A stretch of DNA of 32,000 bases from Chitinophagaceae bacterium (lineage in GTDB: Bacteria > Bacteroidota > Bacteroidia > Chitinophagales > Chitinophagaceae), in contig JADKKA010000006.1 of NCBI GenBank assembly GCA_016720745.1, positions 152,516 to 184,515 on the forward strand. Reading direction: 5' to 3'. Below are positions 16,728 to 25,528 of this stretch, in pieces. The notes beneath the pieces are model-generated. The model saw nothing but the letters and a program-made list of their open reading frames with translations, was not told the DNA's origin and ran no database searches. Position numbers and translations under genes: made by a program. Each line of letters starts with the position of its first letter. Position 1 is the first letter of the stretch.

Positions 16728-16767
16728 CTCAACCACTCAACAACTCAACTACTCAACCTCTCAACTA
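16728..16767. repeat. Octanucleotide tandem array (CTCAACNN)x5 ending on the hflX stop codon
   Basis: CTCAACCA CTCAACAA CTCAACTA CTCAACCT CTCAACTA. The last three bases (16765-16767, CTA) are the reverse complement of the hflX TAG stop. Confidence 0.85.
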
Positions 16768-17955
16768 ATACAAAAACTCTGACTTATAAGGGTACCTCAC
16801 CCGATACATGGACCTTACTTTATCAAGAATTGATTTCCTTAGCTGATCAATATTCTTTTTTTCGAGGGCGGAAACAAAAACAGCATTGCCGCCTGTTTCA
16901 TGTTGCCAGCGTTCGTAGAGGTCTTCCAGGATTTCTTTTTTTGTATTTTCTTCCAGCCATTCGTCAAAGGTGTAGGCTTCGTAGAGATCCATTTTATTGA
17001 AGATGGTGAGCACTGGTTTGTCGTGGGCATCCAGTTCATGAAGGGTTTTATTCACCACAGCAATCTGTTCTTCATAAGCGGGATGGGATACATCCACTAC
17101 ATGCAGGAGGATATCTGATTCCCTTACTTCGTCAAGCGTGCTTTTAAAGCTTTCCACCAGGTGGTGAGGGAGTTTGCGGATAAAACCTACGGTGTCGCTC
17201 AAGAGAAACGGCGTGGTTTCAAAAACAACTTTACTGGTTGTTGTATCAAGTGTGGCGAATAATTTATTTTCGGCAAACACATCTCTTTTGCTCAGCAGGT
17301 TCATGATCGTGCTCTTGCCCACATTGGTATACCCTACAAGGGCTACCCTGATAAATTCTCCTCTTTCTTTACGCTGGGTGAAAGATTGTTTGTCAATTTC
17401 TGCCAGTCTTTTTCGCAGCAGTGATATTTTATCCCGGACAATCCTTCTGTCTGTTTCAATTTCTGTTTCGCCTGGTCCTCTGGTACCAATACCTCCGCCT
17501 AATCGTTCCAGGTGTTTCCACATGCCGCGGAGGCGGGGCAGGATATACTGGTATTGGGCCAGTTCCACCTGTGCCCGGGCCTGTGCGGTTTTAGCGCGGC
17601 TGGCGAAGATGTCGAGGATCAGGTCACTGCGGTCAATGGTTTTTATTTCCAGGGCTTTTTCAATATTGTTGATCTGTGCGCCGCTGAGTTCGTCATCAAA
17701 TATGATGATGCGGATATCACGGCCCTGAATATACTGGCGGATTTCTTCCAGTTTACCCTTGCCGACAAATGTACGGCTGTCGGGGTGCGGGAGTTTTTGT
17801 GTAAAGCGTTTAACGGCTACCGCGCCGGCGGTTTCGGCCAAAAAGGCGAGTTCGTCGAGGTATTCGTTGAGTTGTTGTTCGGTTTGGTCTTTGTGTACGA
17901 GACCGACTAAAACGGCTTTTTCTTCTTTTTGAATTTTCTTCTTGGTATCGAGCAT
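16765..17955 (-). CDS. hflX: GTPase HflX
   Basis: 396 aa with an N-terminal HflX domain (LDELAFLAETAGA, IIFDDELSGAQINNIE, TAQARAQVELAQ). G motifs are GYTNVGKST (G1), DTVGF (G3) and NKMD (G4). Confidence 0.95.
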   Translation of the reverse strand: MLDTKKKIQKEEKAVLVGLVHKDQTEQQLNEYLDELAFLAETAGAVAVKRFTQKLPHPDSRTFVGKGKLEEIRQYIQGRDIRIIIFDDELSGAQINNIEKALEIKTIDRSDLILDIFASRAKTAQARAQVELAQYQYILPRLRGMWKHLERLGGGIGTRGPGETEIETDRRIVRDKISLLRKRLAEIDKQSFTQRKERGEFIRVALVGYTNVGKSTIMNLLSKRDVFAENKLFATLDTTTSKVVFETTPFLLSDTVGFIRKLPHHLVESFKSTLDEVRESDILLHVVDVSHPAYEEQIAVVNKTLHELDAHDKPVLTIFNKMDLYEAYTFDEWLEENTKKEILEDLYERWQHETGGNAVFVSALEKKNIDQLRKSILDKVRSMYRVRYPYKSEFLY

Positions 17956-18220
17956 ATAGGGGTTCCTTCGGAGGGTAAAATTAGAGAATAGTGGGGTGGT
18001 GGGGGAATATTTTTTTTATTTATATAATTTTTTGGGGTGAGTAATGAGGTTACGAGGTTTTATTCAGCCTTACTGATATTATTTTCTTTTTTCTTGATAA
18101 AGTGGGACCAGATCTTACTGCCAGATTTTTACTGGCTACAAACTGATGTGCTATCACTATTTAAAAAGCAATTTTATTATTTTTTTGGAGACAAGGGCTT
18201 GAATTTGGAGGTAGCTTTTT

Positions 18221-18940
18221 TAAGAGTCTTTTCTCTACTTACTTTTTTTCTTGATAAAAAAAGTAACAAAAAAATCAAGACGGTTCGAAGCGGAATTTTC
18301 CGCTCTTGGGAAATTGCTGCAGACGAACCGTCGCCCGACGCTCAAAACTTTGCACGGACCTTAATGCGGTAAGTCTTATGCGTGATGTAGTTGAATACAT
18401 TACAGCGCTGATTTTTCGATCTCCGGCCTTATAGAAAACTGAGACGAAATCCAGATCGAAAAATAGGCGCTTGCAAAATTTTACTTTATTTGGAACTCAA
18501 AAGCTATCAGATGCCCTGGCCTTTTAGTTTCTCTCATCGAAGTGTAAAAAGGTTAAAATCTCTGTCCATACGGCCAACTGAAAAAAAACGGGGAAAGGAT
18601 CTTATATAGATTTAGGGCCATTGCTTTACCCTTTGTCTATTAAACAAAGCACTATTTCTTAAATCGGCTATGAGCTTTGAACATAATGAATTTCCATAGC
18701 GCCTATTTTTCGATTTGAACAACATCACAATTTTATACATCGCTGCAAATCGAAAAATCAGCGCAGTAGGATAACCCGCCAAATCACGCATGAAAAATCT
18801 GGCATTAAAGCCCGTGCCAGAGCTTACTTTCCGGGGGCCGGTTCGACTTCGGAAAATTCCAAAGAGAATGAATTTCCCTTTCGAACCGGCTTGATTTTTT
18901 GTTACTTTTTTATCAAGAAAAAAGTAAGGAAAGACTCTTA
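18221..18940. repeat. Imperfect ~720-bp palindrome: two inverted, diverged copies of a multi-hairpin non-coding module
   Basis: 18221-18290 matches the reverse complement of 18878-18940 apart from one 4-nt indel, three A/T-run length changes and a few substitutions. Homology islands continue inward to about 18470 and 18699, and the centre is mostly unique. Details are in the findings. Confidence 0.85.
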
Positions 18941-18979
18941 TTAGGAAAAAGTTTCGTTAGTTCAGCAGTACACTTCTAT

Positions 18980-19014
18980 TTACTTTTTTTATCAAGAAAA
19001 AAAGTAAGGAAAGA
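18980..19014. repeat. Extra copy of the AT-rich hairpin motif found at the palindrome ends
   Basis: TTACTTTTTTT ATCAAG AAAAAAAGTAA GGAAAGA (18980-19014) repeats 18902-18934 (TTACTTTTTT ATCAAG AAAAAAGTAA GGAAAGA). It is also the reverse complement of 18239-18266. Confidence 0.85.
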
Positions 19015-19071
19015 TTTCTTTCTTTACCAAAGACCAAATCATAACAACTTACTTCACATTTGTAAACTTGC

Positions 19072-19108
19072 AAAAAAAAACACAGCTGATGCAATCAGCT
19101 GTGTTTTT
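19072..19108. terminator. Bidirectional rho-independent terminator (ends the OMP gene on the minus strand)
   Basis: CACAGCTGAT (19081-19090) pairs with ATCAGCTGTG (19094-19103). It is flanked by A9 (19072-19080) and T5 (19104-19108), and lies 21 nt past the stop at 19129. Confidence 0.75.
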
Positions 19109-19128: not shown

Positions 19129-19857
19129 TTACAACCCACTCAATGTAATCCCAATACTAAACGGCCTTACCACAGGTCCAAAACCATCTTTAAACAATGG
19201 TGTTAACTGGTAACTGCCATATAAACTCACATGGCCATAGCCGATCCGCCCCTGCATACTGATCCTGTTCTTATTGAAGAAATATTTACTGGACTCTTTT
19301 AAAGTATGATCAGCAATGGTAGCAGAAGTACTGCTTTCATACTTGGTATTGCGGGTATGGGCATTAATCAGTAACCCAACCTTCACACCAATCGCCGCCT
19401 TCAGGCCCTTGCCATGTAAAGGATCGGAAGAAAAGCGAAACTCGATCGGAGCTTCCGCATATACCGTGGCCAGTTTGGTTTTTTTATAATTGTTGGTATC
19501 AGAAACATTGGTGAACTGAATCGTACTGGTATTTCTTTTGATGCCCACATCTGTTTGGGAGAACACAATATGATCACTGGCAATACCAGGTCCAAAGGCC
19601 ATACTCAGCTTCGGATTGGTTTTGAAAGGAAAATCCAAAAGGAAATAAACATTAAAACTTTTAGAGAAACCCGATTTATTGATCGTGTCCGGAATCCCGG
19701 CCCAACCGGTATATCCAAACTGGAGCATGAAGTGATCGCTGGGACGATTACTCATATCAATGTTCTGTTTCTTCTTCTTGTCGGTCTGGGGATTGTTCTG
19801 TGCCATCGCAGCAAATCCAAGACATAGTAATACGGGGACGATCAGCGTTTTCTTCAT
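19129..19857 (-). CDS. Outer-membrane beta-barrel protein (porin-family / OmpA-beta-barrel-like)
   Basis: Signal peptide MKKTLIVPVLLCLGFAAMAQ. Amphipathic beta-strands alternate throughout, ending in the aromatic-rich SLYGSYQLTPLF...FSIGITLSGL. Confidence 0.75.
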   Translation of the reverse strand: MKKTLIVPVLLCLGFAAMAQNNPQTDKKKKQNIDMSNRPSDHFMLQFGYTGWAGIPDTINKSGFSKSFNVYFLLDFPFKTNPKLSMAFGPGIASDHIVFSQTDVGIKRNTSTIQFTNVSDTNNYKKTKLATVYAEAPIEFRFSSDPLHGKGLKAAIGVKVGLLINAHTRNTKYESSTSATIADHTLKESSKYFFNKNRISMQGRIGYGHVSLYGSYQLTPLFKDGFGPVVRPFSIGITLSGL

Positions 19858-19963: not shown

Positions 19964-20037
19964 GGACCCTTAGCTCAGACGGTTAGAGCATCTGACTCAT
20001 AATCAGAGGGTCGTTGGTTCGATCCCAACAGGGTCCA
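19964..20037 (+). tRNA. tRNA with CAT anticodon; its features favour tRNA-Ile2 (lysidine type) over elongator tRNA-Met
   Basis: Hand-folded cloverleaf: acceptor GGACCCT/AGGGTCC, D arm GCTC/GAGC, anticodon stem TCTGA/TCAGA with loop CTCATAA, T arm GTTGG-TTCGATC-CCAAC, discriminator A, and no encoded CCA. It lacks the initiator GGG/CCC anticodon stem. C4:G69 and C5:G68, plus overall similarity to E. coli ileX as I remember it, suggest Ile2. Confidence 0.93.
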
Positions 20038-20040
20038 CGT

Positions 20041-20067: not shown

Positions 20068-20170
20068 GTTTCCCGCTTGATACGAATCAAATAATCCGCC
20101 GCCTTTTTTGCCCACTGTGCGGAAATCGTCATGGATTTTCAGGTCCGATATCCTTAGATTTACGCAATCG

Positions 20171-20767
20171 ATGCCGGAGAACGAGAACATTAAACGATTG
20201 CTCACTGCCATTTCAGTCAACAACGACCAGGCTGCTTACCGGGAACTATTCATCCTGTTGCACGCCCGGCTGAAGCAGTTTGCCTATTCCATCCTGAAAT
20301 CAGGAGAGGAAGCAGAAGAGCTTGTGTCTGATGTGTTTATACGCATCTGGCAAAAAAGAGAGCAACTCGAAAATATCAATTCTCCCCTCCTTTATTTTTA
20401 TACCACCACCAAGAACCTGGCCCTCAATCAGCTCAGTAAACAAAAACGACAGGTTAATCTCTCACCCGAAGAATGGCTGGTTCAGGTCAATTCTCTCTAT
20501 TTCGACCCCGAACAACTGATGCTCACCGAAGAAATGTTCCGACAGGTGAAAAAAGCAGTCAATGACCTCCCTCCCCGCTGCCGGCTGATTTTCAAGCTGG
20601 TAAAAGAAGATGGCCTCCGGTACAAAGAAGTGGCCGAATTGCTGCAATTATCTGTCAAAACCATTGAGGCTCAAATGGCTATCGCATTAAGAAGGATCGG
20701 AAAATGCATGCATTTTGAGCTCAAAACGGCGATTCCGGCCAGGGCCCAGACAATTCTTAAAAAATAA
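20171..20767 (+). CDS. ECF-type RNA polymerase sigma-70 factor
   Basis: Region 2 is EELVSDVFIRIWQKRE. Region 4 HTH is LPPRCRLIFKLVKEDGLRYKEVAELLQLSVKTIEAQMAIALRRI. I placed the start at MPENENIK. The ORF-track start at 20108 lies 41 nt downstream of the tRNA terminator hairpin and adds a non-sigma-like leader. Confidence 0.88.
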   Translation: MPENENIKRLLTAISVNNDQAAYRELFILLHARLKQFAYSILKSGEEAEELVSDVFIRIWQKREQLENINSPLLYFYTTTKNLALNQLSKQKRQVNLSPEEWLVQVNSLYFDPEQLMLTEEMFRQVKKAVNDLPPRCRLIFKLVKEDGLRYKEVAELLQLSVKTIEAQMAIALRRIGKCMHFELKTAIPARAQTILKK

Positions 20768-20831
20768 TTAAAATTTCTTTAGGGGTAAGGACCGGTTCCG
20801 GCTGTCTTATGCAGGTATACCCATCAAAACC

Positions 20832-21938
20832 ATGAGCCAGGAGACTTTTTGGATTTTATTGTCGAAAAAACTATCGGGAGAGGCCAGTTTGGAAGAACTG
20901 GTTGTTCTGGAAAATCTGATTCTGGAACATCCCGAATGGCAATTGGCTATTCAAAACCTGGGAGAAATCTGGAAATATCAGCCGAAAAAGGACCAAACCG
21001 AAGAGGAAGACGCGTACATGCTTCATTTACAAAGAATGCAGGAACTGAATGTCCCGTTTGGGAATATGCCGGATCAGACACCGGTAGTTTCCATGTCGGG
21101 ACGAAAAAAGATGAAACGCTGGTATTGGGCCGCAGCCGTACTGCTGGTACTCGCCAGTACCTGGGCCCTGCTGATGAAACCCTTTAAAGGAGGACAAGGA
21201 CAGGAAATGGCCCGGCAGGTGAGCGAAATCACTACCCGGCCCGGCTCCACTTCCAAAGTGGAATTACCGGACGGTTCCATGGTTTGGCTGAATGCAGGAA
21301 GTAAACTGACCTACAATAAAGATTTTGGAAAAGAACTGCGGGAGGTGACCCTTTCAGGAGAAGGATATTTTGATGTAACCAAGATGAAGGACAAACCCTT
21401 TATCATTCATACATCCAATATCAATATCAAAGTACTGGGTACGGCCTTTAATGTAAAAGCTTATCCGGAAGATAAACTCAGTGAAACCAGCCTGATCAGG
21501 GGAAGCATAGAAGTCACGATCAAGAACCGGCCCAATGATAAAATCATCCTTTCCCCCAGTGAAAAACTGGTGGTGGAGAATGATCGGGTGGTTCGCAGAG
21601 GAGTAGTACAGAAACCCGTGGATGCCCCGGTTAGCCCCATGGTACCGATGGTAGCCGTAAATAAGTTAAGGTACAGTCCGGCTGATAGTTCCATTGATGA
21701 AATCGCCTGGATGGATAACCGGCTCATTTTCCGGAACGAAACCATGGAGGAGCTGGCCCTGCGGATGGAAAGAAGATATGCCGTACAGATCCAGATCGAG
21801 GCAGATGAGTTGAAAGAAATGAAGGTCAACGGCATTTTTGACCAGGAGTCAGTTGCCCAGGCCCTCGAAGCCCTGAAAGAAATGATCCCTTCCATCAATT
21901 ATGTGAAAGAAGGGAACCAAATAATTATTAACCGCTAA
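20832..21938 (+). CDS. FecR-family anti-sigma factor (transmembrane sensor)
   Basis: N-terminal cytoplasmic anti-sigma part, a single TM segment (WYWAAAVLLVLASTWALLM), a FecR domain (TTRPGSTSKVELPDGSMVWLNAGSKLTY...LSGEGYFDV) and a C-terminal DUF4974-like tail. Confidence 0.88.
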   Translation: MSQETFWILLSKKLSGEASLEELVVLENLILEHPEWQLAIQNLGEIWKYQPKKDQTEEEDAYMLHLQRMQELNVPFGNMPDQTPVVSMSGRKKMKRWYWAAAVLLVLASTWALLMKPFKGGQGQEMARQVSEITTRPGSTSKVELPDGSMVWLNAGSKLTYNKDFGKELREVTLSGEGYFDVTKMKDKPFIIHTSNINIKVLGTAFNVKAYPEDKLSETSLIRGSIEVTIKNRPNDKIILSPSEKLVVENDRVVRRGVVQKPVDAPVSPMVPMVAVNKLRYSPADSSIDEIAWMDNRLIFRNETMEELALRMERRYAVQIQIEADELKEMKVNGIFDQESVAQALEALKEMIPSINYVKEGNQIIINR

Positions 21939-22156
21939 TTGCTATGCTGTATGAATAAAACAACTGCCAATAACACTTCCTGAAAGGGTAAAAAACGGGA
22001 TTTCGCTGCAACGAAACCCCGTGTGAACAAACAGGTTGTACACCGGGAACTTTAAGACCCCCGGCATTCTTAACCCTTCAACTGTAATTTATGAAAAAAT
22101 CTGAAACAGCTGCTGTTTCACCTAAGGTTCTGTTGTATCTAAAGATTGCCAGAATT

Positions 22157-25100
22157 ATGAAACTCACGGTTGCTTTGCTGATGTTTGCCTGCCTCCAGGT
22201 TTCCGCCAAAGGATGGGGACAGGAACGCATCACACTTAAAATGAACGAAGCGGAAATCAAGAAAGTACTCTTCGCCATTGAGAAAAAAACCGAGTATCGC
22301 TTTCTCTTTACGGAAGAGTCCGTAAAAGGTAAACCCAAAGTAAATCTTGATGTAAAAGAAGCCACCCTTCCGGAAGTACTGGACAGGATTTTGGCTAATA
22401 CCGGTATTTCTTACAAACTGCTGGGCACAAACCTGGTGGTATTGAAAGAACTCGCCGCACTTGCCGAAGTAAATACAAAAGATATACGCATCACCGGAAA
22501 AATTACTGCTGCCACCGGTGAGCCGCTGGCCGGCGTATCCATCCAGGTCAAGGGATCCAGGGTAGGAACCGTAACGGATGCCAACGGTAATTTCTCCATC
22601 AGTGTTCCTGATGATGCCGTACTGGTGATCAGCTCCGTGGGTTATGAACCCCAGGAAGTTTCTGTAAAAGGAAAGACTTCCATCAGTGTTGCCCTGAAGC
22701 AATCTGAAAAAATTCAGGATGCTGTGGTGGTTATTGGTTATGGTTCTGCTGTGAAAAGAGACCTGACCGGATCCATTACAAAAGTAAAAGGAGATGCCAT
22801 CGCTGCACAGCCCAACAGTAACCCCCTCGCCTCCCTGCAGGCCAAGGTAGCCGGTCTCACCATCGTGAATACCGCCATCCCCGGTTCTGCACCCGATGTG
22901 CGCATAAGGGGTACCGTTAGTATCGGTAGTATCCGTCCGGTTTATATCATCGACGGTATTTTCAGTGATAATATGGATTTTGTTAACCCCAGCGAAATCG
23001 AAAGCGTGGAAGTGCTGAAAGATGCATCCTCCCTCGCCATCTTCGGTATCAAGGGTGCCGCCGGTGCGATCCTGGTAACCACCAAGAAAGCAAAGACCGG
23101 ACAAATCAATATCAATTTCAATACGGCTTATGGTACCAAAAAACTGGTTGACAAAATTCAGCTCGCAAACGGAGATGATTTCAGGAAACTCGCTACTATG
23201 GAAGCCCTGAGCCGGGTGGATGATGATCCAAGTGATTTATCCCTGCTGAATTTTGTAAACAATGTAGGCGGACCGGGTATGAATGCTTATACCGGCAATA
23301 CCGACTGGATCGATGCCGTAACCCGTACTGCCAAATTCAGTACCACCAATGTGAGTCTGGATGGAAGCACTGATAAGAACAAATTCCACATGGGGCTGGG
23401 TTATACTTATGATGAAGGCCTGGTAAAACATGTTCGCTACGACCGGATGACCATGAATATCAGCGATGAATTCAAAGTGAATAAGACTTGGAAACTGGGC
23501 TTTACCATCATTGGTTCCAAAGAAAGATTGCCTTACGGCAGCGGTGCTTTGGAAAATGCCCGCCGGATTGTACCGATCGTTTCGGCTGATCCCAAATCAG
23601 TATACACCAAGAATCCATATGGTGTTGATTCTGCCAACTATAACCTGTATTCTTCTGTTCCTATCATTCAGAATTCAGAGACTAACCCGTTGGCTACCCT
23701 GGAGAATAACTGGGATAAGAAAATCGATGACCGTTACCGCTTCGTGGGTAATGTATTCGTGGATATCAATATCACCAAGGACCTGAATTTCCGTCCGACC
23801 TGGTATGCCGATATGAGCTGGCGCAGTAACAGGGAATACACACCGCTGTATGACCTTTATGATCCATCCATGACTGGTGATCAGGTAGTAAGCAGGAATA
23901 CCCTGACAGCCGTTAGACAGGACCTGATCAATACCCGGGCCTTCCAGCAGGATTATATTGCTACTTACAAGAAAAAATTCAATAACCATTCTTTCACCCT
24001 GATGGGCGGCTTTACTACTTATTTCTATAAGTATGAGCAGGCTTCTTCCACGGTTTCACAGAAAGAAGAAGGAAAGAATATCATTCCAAATAATAAACGC
24101 TTCTGGTATATCAATACCGGTTTCGGAGATATCCAGAGCGTGATACCAGCCGGTCAAAGTGAATACACTACCGTATCAGGTCTTGCCCGTTTGCTCTACA
24201 ACTATAAGAACAAATATTATTTCAACGCCAGCTTCCGCAGAGACGGAGCCAGCCAGATCAGCAAAAACTACAAAGACAAATTCCAGAGCTTCTGGGCCGT
24301 TGGTGCTGCCTGGGAAATCACCCGTGAGAAATTCATGGAGAATATGGAAGTGTTCAATTACCTGAAATTAAAAGCATCCACCGGATTGCTCGGTAACTTC
24401 ACTGCCCAGGGCAAGAACTACCCTGCTTACCCCACAATTTCCACTAACTCATCTGCCGTATTTGGTGAAAACCTGGTACCGGTGTATGAGGCAGACTATC
24501 TCTACGATCCCAATCTGCGCTGGGAAACTGTGAATTCTTCTGAAATAGGAATTGAAGCGGAAATGTTCAAAAGCCGTCTGCATTTCGAAATGGCTTATTA
24601 CAGTAAAAAAACACAGGACCTGATCGTGTTGCTCAGACCTTCCGGTATTCTTCCATCCCTGACCAATAACGGATCGATCCAGAACAGTGGTTTTGAATTC
24701 GTGGGCAGCTGGAATCAGAAGATCGGCAATGACATGAGCCTGACCATTGGTGGTAACCTTACCACATTTAAAAACAAAGTGCTGCACCTGGAGTATCCCA
24801 ACAGACCGAATATCTCTTCCAGCGAGCAAACACCTAACCAGGCACAAACCGGTTACCCAATCGGTTATTTCTACGGACTGGTAGCAGATGGATTGTATCA
24901 GTCTTATGCTGATATCCTGGCTTCACCTGTTAACACCATCAATGGTGGTGGTGCCAAGCCCGGCGATATCAAGTACAAAGACCTGGATGGTGATGGCATC
25001 ATCAATGATAACGACAAGCAGATGATTGGAAACCCAACACCTGACTTTACATACGGTATCAATACCACTTTCAAGTACAAAGCATTTGATGTGAATATTG

Positions 25101-25528
25101 ATTTTGCCGGATGTTATGGTAATGAAGTATTCAGGGTATGGGGTACATCAGAGCAAAAGAACTCACTGTACAATTATCCAAAGAATTATACTGAAGGATG
25201 GACAGGAGCGGCTACTTCGAATTTTGTTCCAATCGTGAACCAGAAGCACCTGATCAACCGGGCTCCTTCAACTTACGGTATTGAAGATGGAAGTTATTTC
25301 CGGATCAGGAACCTGAACCTGGGATATACTTTCATGAAACTGCCGAAAGTAACAGGCATCAAAAACCTGAAACTGAGTCTTTCTATCCAGAACCTGAAAA
25401 CCTGGAAGAAGAACCTGGGTTACTCACCTGAATTTGCCGGTGATGCCCTTGGATTTGGTTTGGACTTCGGTAGTGCCGGAAGTGCCCTGCCACGTGTAAT
25501 CACTTTTGGACTGAATGCTAATTTTTAA
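22157..25528 (+). CDS. SusC/RagA-family TonB-dependent outer-membrane transporter with an N-terminal STN signalling domain
   Basis: Signal peptide MKLTVALLMFACLQVSAKG. STN domain (ITLKMNEAEIKKVLFAIEKKTEYRFLF...ISYKLLGTNLVVL), a carboxypeptidase-regulatory-like domain (ITGKITAATGEPLAGVSIQVKG...TDANGNFSI), a plug (VVVIGYGS..KRDLTGS) and a barrel ending in a terminal F. Start chosen at the internal Met; the ORF track begins at 22091. Confidence 0.93.
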   Translation: MKLTVALLMFACLQVSAKGWGQERITLKMNEAEIKKVLFAIEKKTEYRFLFTEESVKGKPKVNLDVKEATLPEVLDRILANTGISYKLLGTNLVVLKELAALAEVNTKDIRITGKITAATGEPLAGVSIQVKGSRVGTVTDANGNFSISVPDDAVLVISSVGYEPQEVSVKGKTSISVALKQSEKIQDAVVVIGYGSAVKRDLTGSITKVKGDAIAAQPNSNPLASLQAKVAGLTIVNTAIPGSAPDVRIRGTVSIGSIRPVYIIDGIFSDNMDFVNPSEIESVEVLKDASSLAIFGIKGAAGAILVTTKKAKTGQININFNTAYGTKKLVDKIQLANGDDFRKLATMEALSRVDDDPSDLSLLNFVNNVGGPGMNAYTGNTDWIDAVTRTAKFSTTNVSLDGSTDKNKFHMGLGYTYDEGLVKHVRYDRMTMNISDEFKVNKTWKLGFTIIGSKERLPYGSGALENARRIVPIVSADPKSVYTKNPYGVDSANYNLYSSVPIIQNSETNPLATLENNWDKKIDDRYRFVGNVFVDINITKDLNFRPTWYADMSWRSNREYTPLYDLYDPSMTGDQVVSRNTLTAVRQDLINTRAFQQDYIATYKKKFNNHSFTLMGGFTTYFYKYEQASSTVSQKEEGKNIIPNNKRFWYINTGFGDIQSVIPAGQSEYTTVSGLARLLYNYKNKYYFNASFRRDGASQISKNYKDKFQSFWAVGAAWEITREKFMENMEVFNYLKLKASTGLLGNFTAQGKNYPAYPTISTNSSAVFGENLVPVYEADYLYDPNLRWETVNSSEIGIEAEMFKSRLHFEMAYYSKKTQDLIVLLRPSGILPSLTNNGSIQNSGFEFVGSWNQKIGNDMSLTIGGNLTTFKNKVLHLEYPNRPNISSSEQTPNQAQTGYPIGYFYGLVADGLYQSYADILASPVNTINGGGAKPGDIKYKDLDGDGIINDNDKQMIGNPTPDFTYGINTTFKYKAFDVNIDFAGCYGNEVFRVWGTSEQKNSLYNYPKNYTEGWTGAATSNFVPIVNQKHLINRAPSTYGIEDGSYFRIRNLNLGYTFMKLPKVTGIKNLKLSLSIQNLKTWKKNLGYSPEFAGDALGFGLDFGSAGSALPRVITFGLNANF

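Follow-up and report, generated by a model that had tools for sequence, protein, structure and literature searches.

A 720-bp palindrome beside hflX belongs to a dispersed family of modular repeats with conserved hairpins in wastewater Chitinophagaceae

Repetitive extragenic palindromes (REPs) are imperfect palindromes of about 20-65 nt that carry GTAG or CGTC 5' of the hairpin foot (PMC3733652, PMC6006769). In bacterial interspersed mosaic elements (BIMEs) and REP dimers, two unit types alternate in orientation and are joined by conserved linkers (PMC3733652). The genes of the TnpA-Y1 subclass 2.6 (HuH-Y1), found mostly in Bacteroidetes, are reported to be flanked by atypical hairpins that have copies elsewhere in the genome (PMC6006769). 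Repeats of the REP, BIME and REPIN types are well studied in Proteobacteria but barely described in Bacteroidota. Miniature inverted-repeat transposable elements (MITEs), foldback elements, the Correia elements of Neisseria and the pneumococcal BOX elements are likewise dispersed, non-coding and modular, have inverted ends, give rise to internal-deletion derivatives and may affect transcription of their neighbours. Here we describe an imperfect palindrome of about 720 bp in the spacer between hflX and a beta-barrel outer-membrane protein (OMP) gene of a Chitinophagaceae bacterium (contig JADKKA010000006.1), and the repeat family to which it belongs. The window is the 32,000-nucleotide stretch of that contig that was analysed; coordinates without a locus number (L) are positions in the window.

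The palindrome, which an earlier note on this DNA had placed at 18221-18940, was recovered by an inverted-repeat search as the pairs 18221-18234/18927-18940 (93% complementary), 18258-18337/18832-18911 (80 nt, 74% complementary) and 18352-18480/18689-18817 (129 nt, 71% complementary). Gapped alignment of the left arm with the reverse complement of the right arm gave 75% mean column identity over ~250 nt, and BLAST of the gap against same-species contigs gave an arm-to-arm match of E = 5e-19. The islands of inward homology that the note had listed were also found: GCACGGACCTTAATGC (18352-18367) matches the reverse complement of 18802-18817 with 2 mismatches, ATGCGTGAT (18378-18386) matches that of 18783-18791, and among the words repeated further in is the 17-mer AGCGCTGATTTTTCGAT, with four occurrences in the element. 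The overall layout of 18221-18940 is two ~250-nt arms around an asymmetric centre of ~225 nt. The palindrome is thus confirmed and far exceeds chance expectation, but the inverted repeat extends a few bases beyond the span described, to about 18215/18950, and a third AT hairpin lies at 18980-19007.

Copies of the element proved to be dispersed. We scanned 185,579 species genomes for the exact innermost hairpin, GCTGATTTTTCGAT-N15-45-ATCGAAAAAT. Nine matches fell in five stretches of a sister metagenome-assembled genome (MAG), "Chitinophagaceae bacterium Aved_18-Q3-R54-62_MAXAC.105" (JADJDJ01), which holds at least 7 full and 2-3 partial copies at five loci. Two more fell in a single "uncultured Chitinophaga sp." MAG, where each of the two elements has one arm in full and only a short end opposite it. 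Metagenome contigs, scanned in a similar way, gave 13 stretches, nearly all from wastewater samples. BLAST and nhmmer comparisons showed the copies to be full-length, about 710-740 bp, with the centre included. Hence the centre, which the note had called mostly unique, is indeed asymmetric but is present in full-length copies elsewhere. The 14 distinct full-length copies collected are 66-91% identical pairwise. Each matches the window far better in one orientation (e.g., 381 vs 237 bits), the scores being two to three times higher in the same orientation than in the palindromic one, and therefore the unit has polarity despite its palindromy. Three matches in MAGs of other phyla (Acidobacteriota and Deltaproteobacteria; L020, L022 and L024) were rejected, as they have no other part of the element and none fits the arm model. 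By appearance these and L040 are chance or coding-sequence matches, two of the three apparently lying within coding sequence.

The body of the element had no match in the phage genomes of a phage collection or, with two element patterns, in viral contigs, and in a plasmid collection only the 45-nt end motif discussed below was matched. Rfam searches of the window and six other loci, at both gathering and permissive thresholds, gave no family match to the element, in which the note had by eye seen no likeness to tmRNA, RNase P, 6S, SRP or a riboswitch; the only feature of the window that reaches the Rfam threshold is tRNA-Met. The family is a lineage-restricted, previously undescribed repeat in one group of wastewater Chitinophagaceae. 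The many dispersed copies in the sister genome and in metagenome contigs favour a repeat over a single conserved locus, the two outcomes that the note had proposed to separate by a copy search, and in close relatives the region is present with its blocks conserved.

We consider two readings the least probable: a promoter switch that works by inversion (inverton), and an inverted duplication that arose once and is neutral. Inverted repeats do flank a ~225-bp centre upstream of hflX, as in an inverton, but 10 same-species metagenome contigs with identical HflX have a spacer that is 99.7-99.8% identical to and collinear with that of the window, with no flipped centre. The arm-centre-arm order is moreover the same in 14/14 family members, and no recombinase gene lies near the window element. 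The neutral duplication, an alternative put forward in the note, is excluded by a multi-copy family with conserved blocks.

Alignments were made of the 14 full units and of 27 distinct arms (13 L and 14 R). Every unit consists of one L-type and one R-type arm. From the outside in, the order is linker, hairpin H1, A-run, TCAAG, hairpin H2, conserved block, hairpin H3, hairpin H4 and centre, followed by the other arm inverted; Px denotes the pairing of the H1 loop with the TCAAG element. The two arms therefore do share their hairpins, as the note had it, but they are not equivalent: they are distinct L and R types with a fixed polarity. In the window the parts are as follows.

18083-18101: degenerate half of the H1 end motif (TTTCTTTTTTCTTGATAAA) in the left flank, probably the remnant of a further unit or linker
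18215-18238: proximal part of the linker (…TAAGAGTCTTTTCTCTAC), the outermost part of the inverted repeat
18239-18266: H1-L hairpin, TTACTTTTTTT / CTTGAT loop / AAAAAAAGTAA, with two pairs that show compensatory change
18250-18279: Px pairing of the H1-loop CTTGAT (18250-18255) with ATCAAG/TCAAG (18274-18279) across the A-run, with A-T to C-G changes
18279-18332: H2-L, stem GACGGTTCG (18279-18287) with CGAACCGTC (18324-18332), enclosing small GGAA/TTCC hairpins
18352-18367: conserved block of the L arm, GCACGGACCTTAATGC, a hairpin with a conserved loop
18404-18471: H4-L, imperfect hairpin AGCGCTGATTTTTCGATCT…AGATCGAAAAATAGGCGCT with the fixed TG/AG 2x2 mismatch and TTAC/CTAC adjacent, 99.5% paired
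18472-18698: asymmetric centre, which sets the polarity of the unit
18699-18764: H4-R, the inverted copy of the invariant hairpin, followed by GTAG at 18766-18769
18798-18821: R-arm hairpin TCTGGCA-TTAAAGCCCG-TGCCAGA, the counterpart of 18352-18367
18837-18890: H2-R, stem GCCGGTTCG (18837-18845) with CGAACCGGC (18882-18890)
18902-18927: H1-R hairpin, TTACTTTTTT / ATCAAG / AAAAAAGTAA
18928-19015: linker in inverted orientation, then the third H1 hairpin (18980-19007), a 28/28 reverse-complement match to H1-L

In the arm alignment H2 is a 9-bp GC-rich stem enclosing the small GGAA/TTCC hairpins, H3 is a variable hairpin, and the block conserved between the two is GCACGGNCCTTAATGC. H4 has the form GCGC-TG-ATTTTTCGAT…ATCGAAAAAT-AG-GCGC, is 66-68 nt long and has (C)TAC/GTAG beside its foot. 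Its stem, including the 2x2 mismatch, has the same sequence in nearly every one of the 27 arms and also in the Chitinophaga sp. modules, and its loop varies freely. In other copies the A-run spanned by Px holds an optional GC hairpin (CCCGATAGCTATCGGG or CCTGCCTGCCGGCAGGCAGG). The centre is partly conserved among paralogues (CTCAAA, CCTCTCATC, GTCC…GGCC and GGGGAA) and partly hypervariable. The best-conserved parts of the unit are the internal hairpins and not the termini, and conserved blocks are also present outside the stems.

Pairs were counted on the arm alignment for H1, Px (H1 loop CTTGAY with RTCAAG), H2, H2b and H4, and 95.8% of the cells were paired. Changes on both sides of a pair were seen at eight pairs, in 49 cells. 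The covariation score was 0.121 versus 0.044 in shuffles (0/500 as high) and was <=0.025 when the partners were slid. Pair 99/150 is A-T in 13/13 L arms and C-G in 14/14 R arms, and pair 103/146 (T-A, G-C or A-T) covaries within the L arms and is fixed in the R arms, the L-arm H2 stem being GACGG[T/G/A]TCG…CGA[A/C/T]CCGTC. As compensatory changes occur within arms and the L and R arms differ at paired sites, it is the local hairpins that are kept and not a 720-nt foldback. Selection keeps each arm's local hairpins.

These data argue against pairing of the two arms with one another, either in a single ~720-nt transcript or in a DNA cruciform, as a giant imperfect hairpin. The minimum-energy fold of the single sequence does pair the arms, and both strands fold 12-13 standard deviations below shuffles (z-scores -12 and -13). 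However, the compensatory changes lie within arms, the A-T versus C-G difference at pair 99/150 in all 27 arms gives arm-to-arm mismatches, and the Chitinophaga sp. elements lack a second full arm. We regard the giant hairpin as very improbable. The arm-to-arm cruciform suggested in the note fails on the same grounds, as the compensatory changes keep the within-arm hairpins and break the arm-to-arm pairing. The structured non-coding RNA of the note would take the form of two separate arm transcripts in place of one long hairpin.

The reading we favour, and to which we give about an even chance of being right, is that of a BIME/REPIN/MITE-like modular palindromic DNA repeat with terminator-like outward ends, one copy of which occupies window 18215-18950 and has outliers at 18083-18101 and 18980-19015. 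The resemblance to BIMEs and REPINs lies in intergenic, non-coding, self-folding imperfect palindromes (PMC3733652, PMC6006769), two unit types inverted around a spacer, doublets in arrays with conserved linkers, compensatory stem changes, a conserved hairpin mismatch, GTAG beside the hairpin foot and copy numbers that vary between relatives. The differences are largely of scale: the arms are ~250 nt with several hairpins versus 20-40 nt for a REP, the spacer is ~225 nt versus 20-100, and there are roughly ten copies per genome versus hundreds. In addition, on each strand the GTAG is 3' of the hairpin rather than 5', T-runs follow the outer hairpins, and no RAYT gene was found in the family loci examined, whereas BIMEs and REPINs are thought to be mobilised by RAYT/TnpA-REP.

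The nature of its pairs suggests that the element acts at the level of DNA. The stems are almost purely Watson-Crick, with G·U-type pairs making up ~1% on either strand. Counted by strand there are 9 vs 7 such pairs in L arms and 8 vs 5 in R arms, so balanced and so few that no strand is indicated. Diverged RNA families normally show many wobble pairs, and on one strand only. The palindromic design of hairpins, arms and linkers, the alternation of unit types with conserved linkers, the mosaic copies and the recurrence of the end motif elsewhere in another order point the same way.

As a DNA repeat the family would have spread via a trans-acting enzyme that recognises folded hairpins, for which the strongest candidate recognition site would be the invariant H4, with its asymmetric mismatch and the GTAG beside it. 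The TnpA-Y1 subclass 2.6 enzymes (PMC6006769) would be a plausible candidate partner for H4. Today the family may persist mainly through recombination and gene conversion. Its copy number changes by homologous crossover within H4.

The arrangement of the copies gave evidence of such turnover. Units occur singly or head to tail (2.5 units at L019, two at L033, 1.5 at L026 and two at L021), and in arrays a conserved linker, either about 55 or about 100 nt long, leads from the H1-R of one unit to the H1-L of the next. Mini-derivatives are reduced to H1-L, a GC hairpin and H1-R, to which a bit of H2 may be added (L018 and the left flanks of L032/L033). The flanks of L032 and L033 are 99.3% identical, yet L033 has two units and L032 one, which is L033a up to H4-R and L033b beyond. 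The L032 unit is thus the product of a crossover inside the invariant H4 hairpin. The five loci compared between JADJDJ01 and its metagenome relatives were all occupied in both, with differing copy numbers and paralogue types, and copies that share a locus in sister lineages are mosaics drawn from different paralogues. By their centres, L011 resembles L019a, and the window resembles L021b and L035.

Rates of change differ between loci. At hflX, the third codon positions of the flanking genes are 75-83% identical between the window and JADJDJ01, and identity is 94% in the left flank, 95.9% in the L arm, 96% in the centre, 98.3% in the R arm and 91.4% in the right flank. The JADJDJ01 copy (L023 around 6608) has a clean 122-bp deletion of window 18352-18473, by which the left arm lost H3 and H4, and its A-run holds an additional GC hairpin of 18 nt. 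At the mnmE locus (L018 vs L029) the third codon positions of the flanking genes are 83-94% identical and the element only 72-86%. These uneven rates point to exchange between copies and between alleles, by recombination and gene conversion, and neither purifying selection nor neutral decay at a steady rate is suggested.

Several observations weigh against a BIME/REPIN/MITE-like repeat. Target-site duplications are absent, close relatives offer no clean empty site (5/5 loci are occupied in both lineages), and a candidate mobilising enzyme was not found in the loci examined. The hflX copy is conserved above silent sites (R arm 98.3% and centre 96% versus 75-83% at third positions), which fits selection on this copy, be it as a functional RNA or as a regulatory locus; recent recombination between alleles would look no different. 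The outward hairpin-plus-T-run on both sides has the look of gene 3' ends, and on the inward strand H1/Px would make a sterically reasonable RNA pseudoknot.

Some of these points bear equally on a classical cut-and-paste MITE, which would derive from a DDE insertion sequence by deletion, have terminal inverted repeats of ~70 bp and be mobilised in trans. The MITE-like character proposed in the note holds insofar as the element is dispersed, multi-copy, non-coding and <800 bp, with the inverted H1/Px end motif and proximal linker present in every copy, the Chitinophaga sp. elements included. Internal-deletion derivatives retain both ends, as in the MITE, Correia and BOX elements with which the family shares its modularity, and the element is an insertion relative to outgroups. 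However, target-site duplications are not consistent: none at array ends or single copies was convincing, one possible 6-mer being found at L027 only, where AAACAT lies on both sides of the element. No matching autonomous element or parent insertion sequence with the same ends was present in the ~300 kb of loci examined, and close relatives showed no presence/absence differences at the five loci. The only transposase near copies, an IS1595-family gene in L021, belongs to an element with unrelated 26-bp ends that is itself inserted into an H1 loop. Moreover, the internal hairpins are better conserved than the ends, and regular tandem arrays with conserved linkers and 66-91% identity speak for an old structured family and no burst. 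The unit is also much larger than Correia or BOX. Hence a classical MITE seems unlikely.

Transcription signals are relevant to a further reading, the main rival of the modular DNA repeat. Both unit ends have a stable hairpin and then a T-run, facing outward; read outward, each arm has a stable hairpin directly before a (C)TTGAT-T-run, and transcription leaving the unit should therefore stop there. On the + strand H2-R is followed by CTTGATTTTTTGTTACTTTTTT and resembles an outward-facing terminator. The optional GC hairpins are placed exactly before the T-run in both arm types, and the Chitinophaga sp. elements have textbook hairpin-plus-T-run ends, outward on both sides. A simple terminator scan does not call the unit ends because the loop of H2 is long. 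From this arrangement the element would probably have a further role between the OMP gene and hflX, that of a transcriptional insulator or terminator.

The same outward ends could instead be those of genes. The element would then be a cassette of two divergently transcribed, paralogous structured small RNA (sRNA) genes of ~200-230 nt each, with promoters in the centre, each RNA running from H4 to H2 (or to the added GC hairpin) plus a U-run, and the arrays being tandem gene families. We hold this possible, but tentatively so. Beyond the termini on every arm, it is favoured by the conserved blocks outside the stems, the compensatory changes in the hairpins, the conservation of the hflX copy above silent sites and the occupation of the same loci in sister lineages. 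In the JADJDJ01 hflX copy the loss is confined to one half of one arm, the half that would be promoter-proximal, and the rest is intact. Paralogues that are in part tandem, a hairpin plus U-run at one end and conserved unpaired blocks are also features of multi-copy sRNA gene families.

The Bacteroidetes -7 box has the consensus TAnnTTTG. In L arms, a few bases ahead of H4, AAATTTTG agrees with 5/6 of its fixed positions, but the better-conserved R arms have GAATTTCC in its place. No full Bacteroidetes promoter match (TTTG-N17-21-TAnnTTTG) was found in the gap, and a sigma-70 promoter scan was uninformative. Unlike multi-copy sRNA families, the element also lacks a strand-specific wobble signature and an Rfam relative, is palindromic at every scale and undergoes mosaic turnover, rapid at the mnmE locus. 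A transcript ending in the T-run would exclude the 3' halves of H1 and Px, leaving their covariation unexplained, and the end motif is ~90% identical in unrelated repeats where it stands in another order. The topology of Px plus H1 is that of an H-type pseudoknot, which is sterically plausible on the inward strand but conflicts with the outward sense of the terminators. If each arm were a gene, a conjecture we rate no higher than the cassette itself, it might encode a ~200-230-nt RNA of a new class that starts with H4 (a protein-binding platform) and has an end motif shared across Bacteroidota, with divergent pairs in tandem arrays and perhaps 15-20 genes. Transcription of the arms would then mean a new large structured-RNA family, hitherto unseen in Chitinophagaceae.

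The family shows the design logic of REPs, BIMEs and REPINs (heterotypic inverted units, conserved linkers, arrays and an invariant mismatched hairpin) at ten times the scale and with clean covariation. It provides a set of hairpins on which orphan Bacteroidetes HuH-Y1 enzymes can be tested, and the repeats mark recombination hotspots in the genomes of an abundant activated-sludge lineage. In practical terms, the arrays are likely sites of mis-assembly.

The surroundings of the window copy are as follows.

16765-17955 (-): hflX (protein named HflX by NCBI sources)
19076-19108 (-): the OMP gene's own intrinsic terminator, outside the repeat, which marks the edge of the inserted stretch
19129-19857 (-): OMP_b-brl_2 beta-barrel gene

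The non-coding OMP-hflX spacer of the window is 1173 bp. It is ~1178 bp in a relative with HflX 97% identical and likewise ~1.17 kb in JADJDJ01, but only 68-76 bp, with the same gene order, in relatives whose HflX is 92%, 91% and 89% identical. Hence 1.1 kb was inserted in the ancestor of a small clade. In the short-spacer relatives (L013 3933-4000; L014 3925-4000; L016 3933-4000) a GC hairpin (CCCCCCGG…GGGGGG plus TTTTATTTT) abuts the hflX ATG. Of that region the window retains only TAATTTTAC, just upstream of hflX (17956-17990), and therefore hflX gained a new upstream region with the insertion. The borders of the insert could not be aligned with the insert-free relatives, which are distant.

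No gene neighbours the copies consistently at the loci examined. The neighbours are unrelated housekeeping genes (HflX, OMP, TonB-C, MnmE, S26, S46 and M1 peptidases and an MBL-fold protein), and no RAYT/TnpA-Y1 gene adjoins the copies in the loci examined. The 3' end of a small outer-membrane beta-barrel gene faces the repeat at two loci (L019 2427-3098 (-) and the window gene at 19129-19857 (-)). This is probably coincidence, as three other loci have unrelated genes. An unannotated 223-aa open reading frame (ORF) beside the L019 array resembles another beta-barrel OMP.

The gap had been described in the note as free of any credible ORF. Its ORFs have no Pfam match and are not kept among copies, and the short ORFs of the centre, on either strand, are likewise not kept and differ by non-triplet indels. 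Public gene calls on the repeat of 92 and 111 aa (window 18037-18372 (+); L001 9584-9862; L003 1518-1853) are low-complexity, without a Pfam match and not kept among copies; such 92-111-aa calls are probably spurious, a practical caution for annotation. On the far side of the OMP gene, tRNA-Met (19964-20038) is followed at 20108-25528 by a polysaccharide-utilisation locus typical of Bacteroidota, which thus adjoins the palindrome region and consists of an ECF (extracytoplasmic function) sigma factor, an anti-sigma factor of the FecR type and a SusC/SusD pair.

The 45-nt H1/Px end motif recurs in other Bacteroidota at 87-97% identity and in another order: in Persicobacter sp. JZB09, where it is multi-copy, and on an Aureibacter plasmid. 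Each Persicobacter replicon has 4-8 occurrences, and there a different GC-rich palindrome of ~190 nt lies at the CTTGAT|TTTTT point, between GCCTTGAT and TTTTTGTTTCG of an H1-type motif (L043 about 1340-1549; L044 about 1340-1549 and 1707-1779). An unfilled motif is 160 nt away, and the pair looks like a filled and an empty site. On Aureibacter tunicatorum plasmid pAT6 (L041 2496-2544) the motif occurs once, on the sense strand, in the 240-bp cas7d-cas5d spacer of a type I-D CRISPR-Cas operon. A search of viral contigs with the end motif matched one record, which is that Aureibacter plasmid sequence. Readings of the motif as an IHF site or an attC core were rejected by eye, and the element as an integron attC site was discarded as no GTTRRRY core is present (attC core sites are GTTRRRY and RYYYAAC). 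IS200-IS605 ends were also set aside: these need both subterminal hairpins on one strand, and in the two arms the mismatched face of H4 falls on opposite strands.

Two larger stretches of extra sequence were seen at copies. In one relative ~2.9 kb of extra sequence lies beside a repeat copy (L029 1593-4495 vs L018 1590-1832), encoding 250-aa and 573-aa ORFs of unknown function and no transposase. The IS1595-family transposon of L021 (2559-6728) is 4.17 kb long, has perfect 26-bp inverted ends (AGGTAACTATATACCTGTTAGACCAC) unrelated to those of the repeat and encodes a transposase as well as Bro-N-like and P63C-domain proteins as further ORFs. The transposon interrupts an H1 hairpin in its CTTGAC loop, with CTTGAC duplicated.

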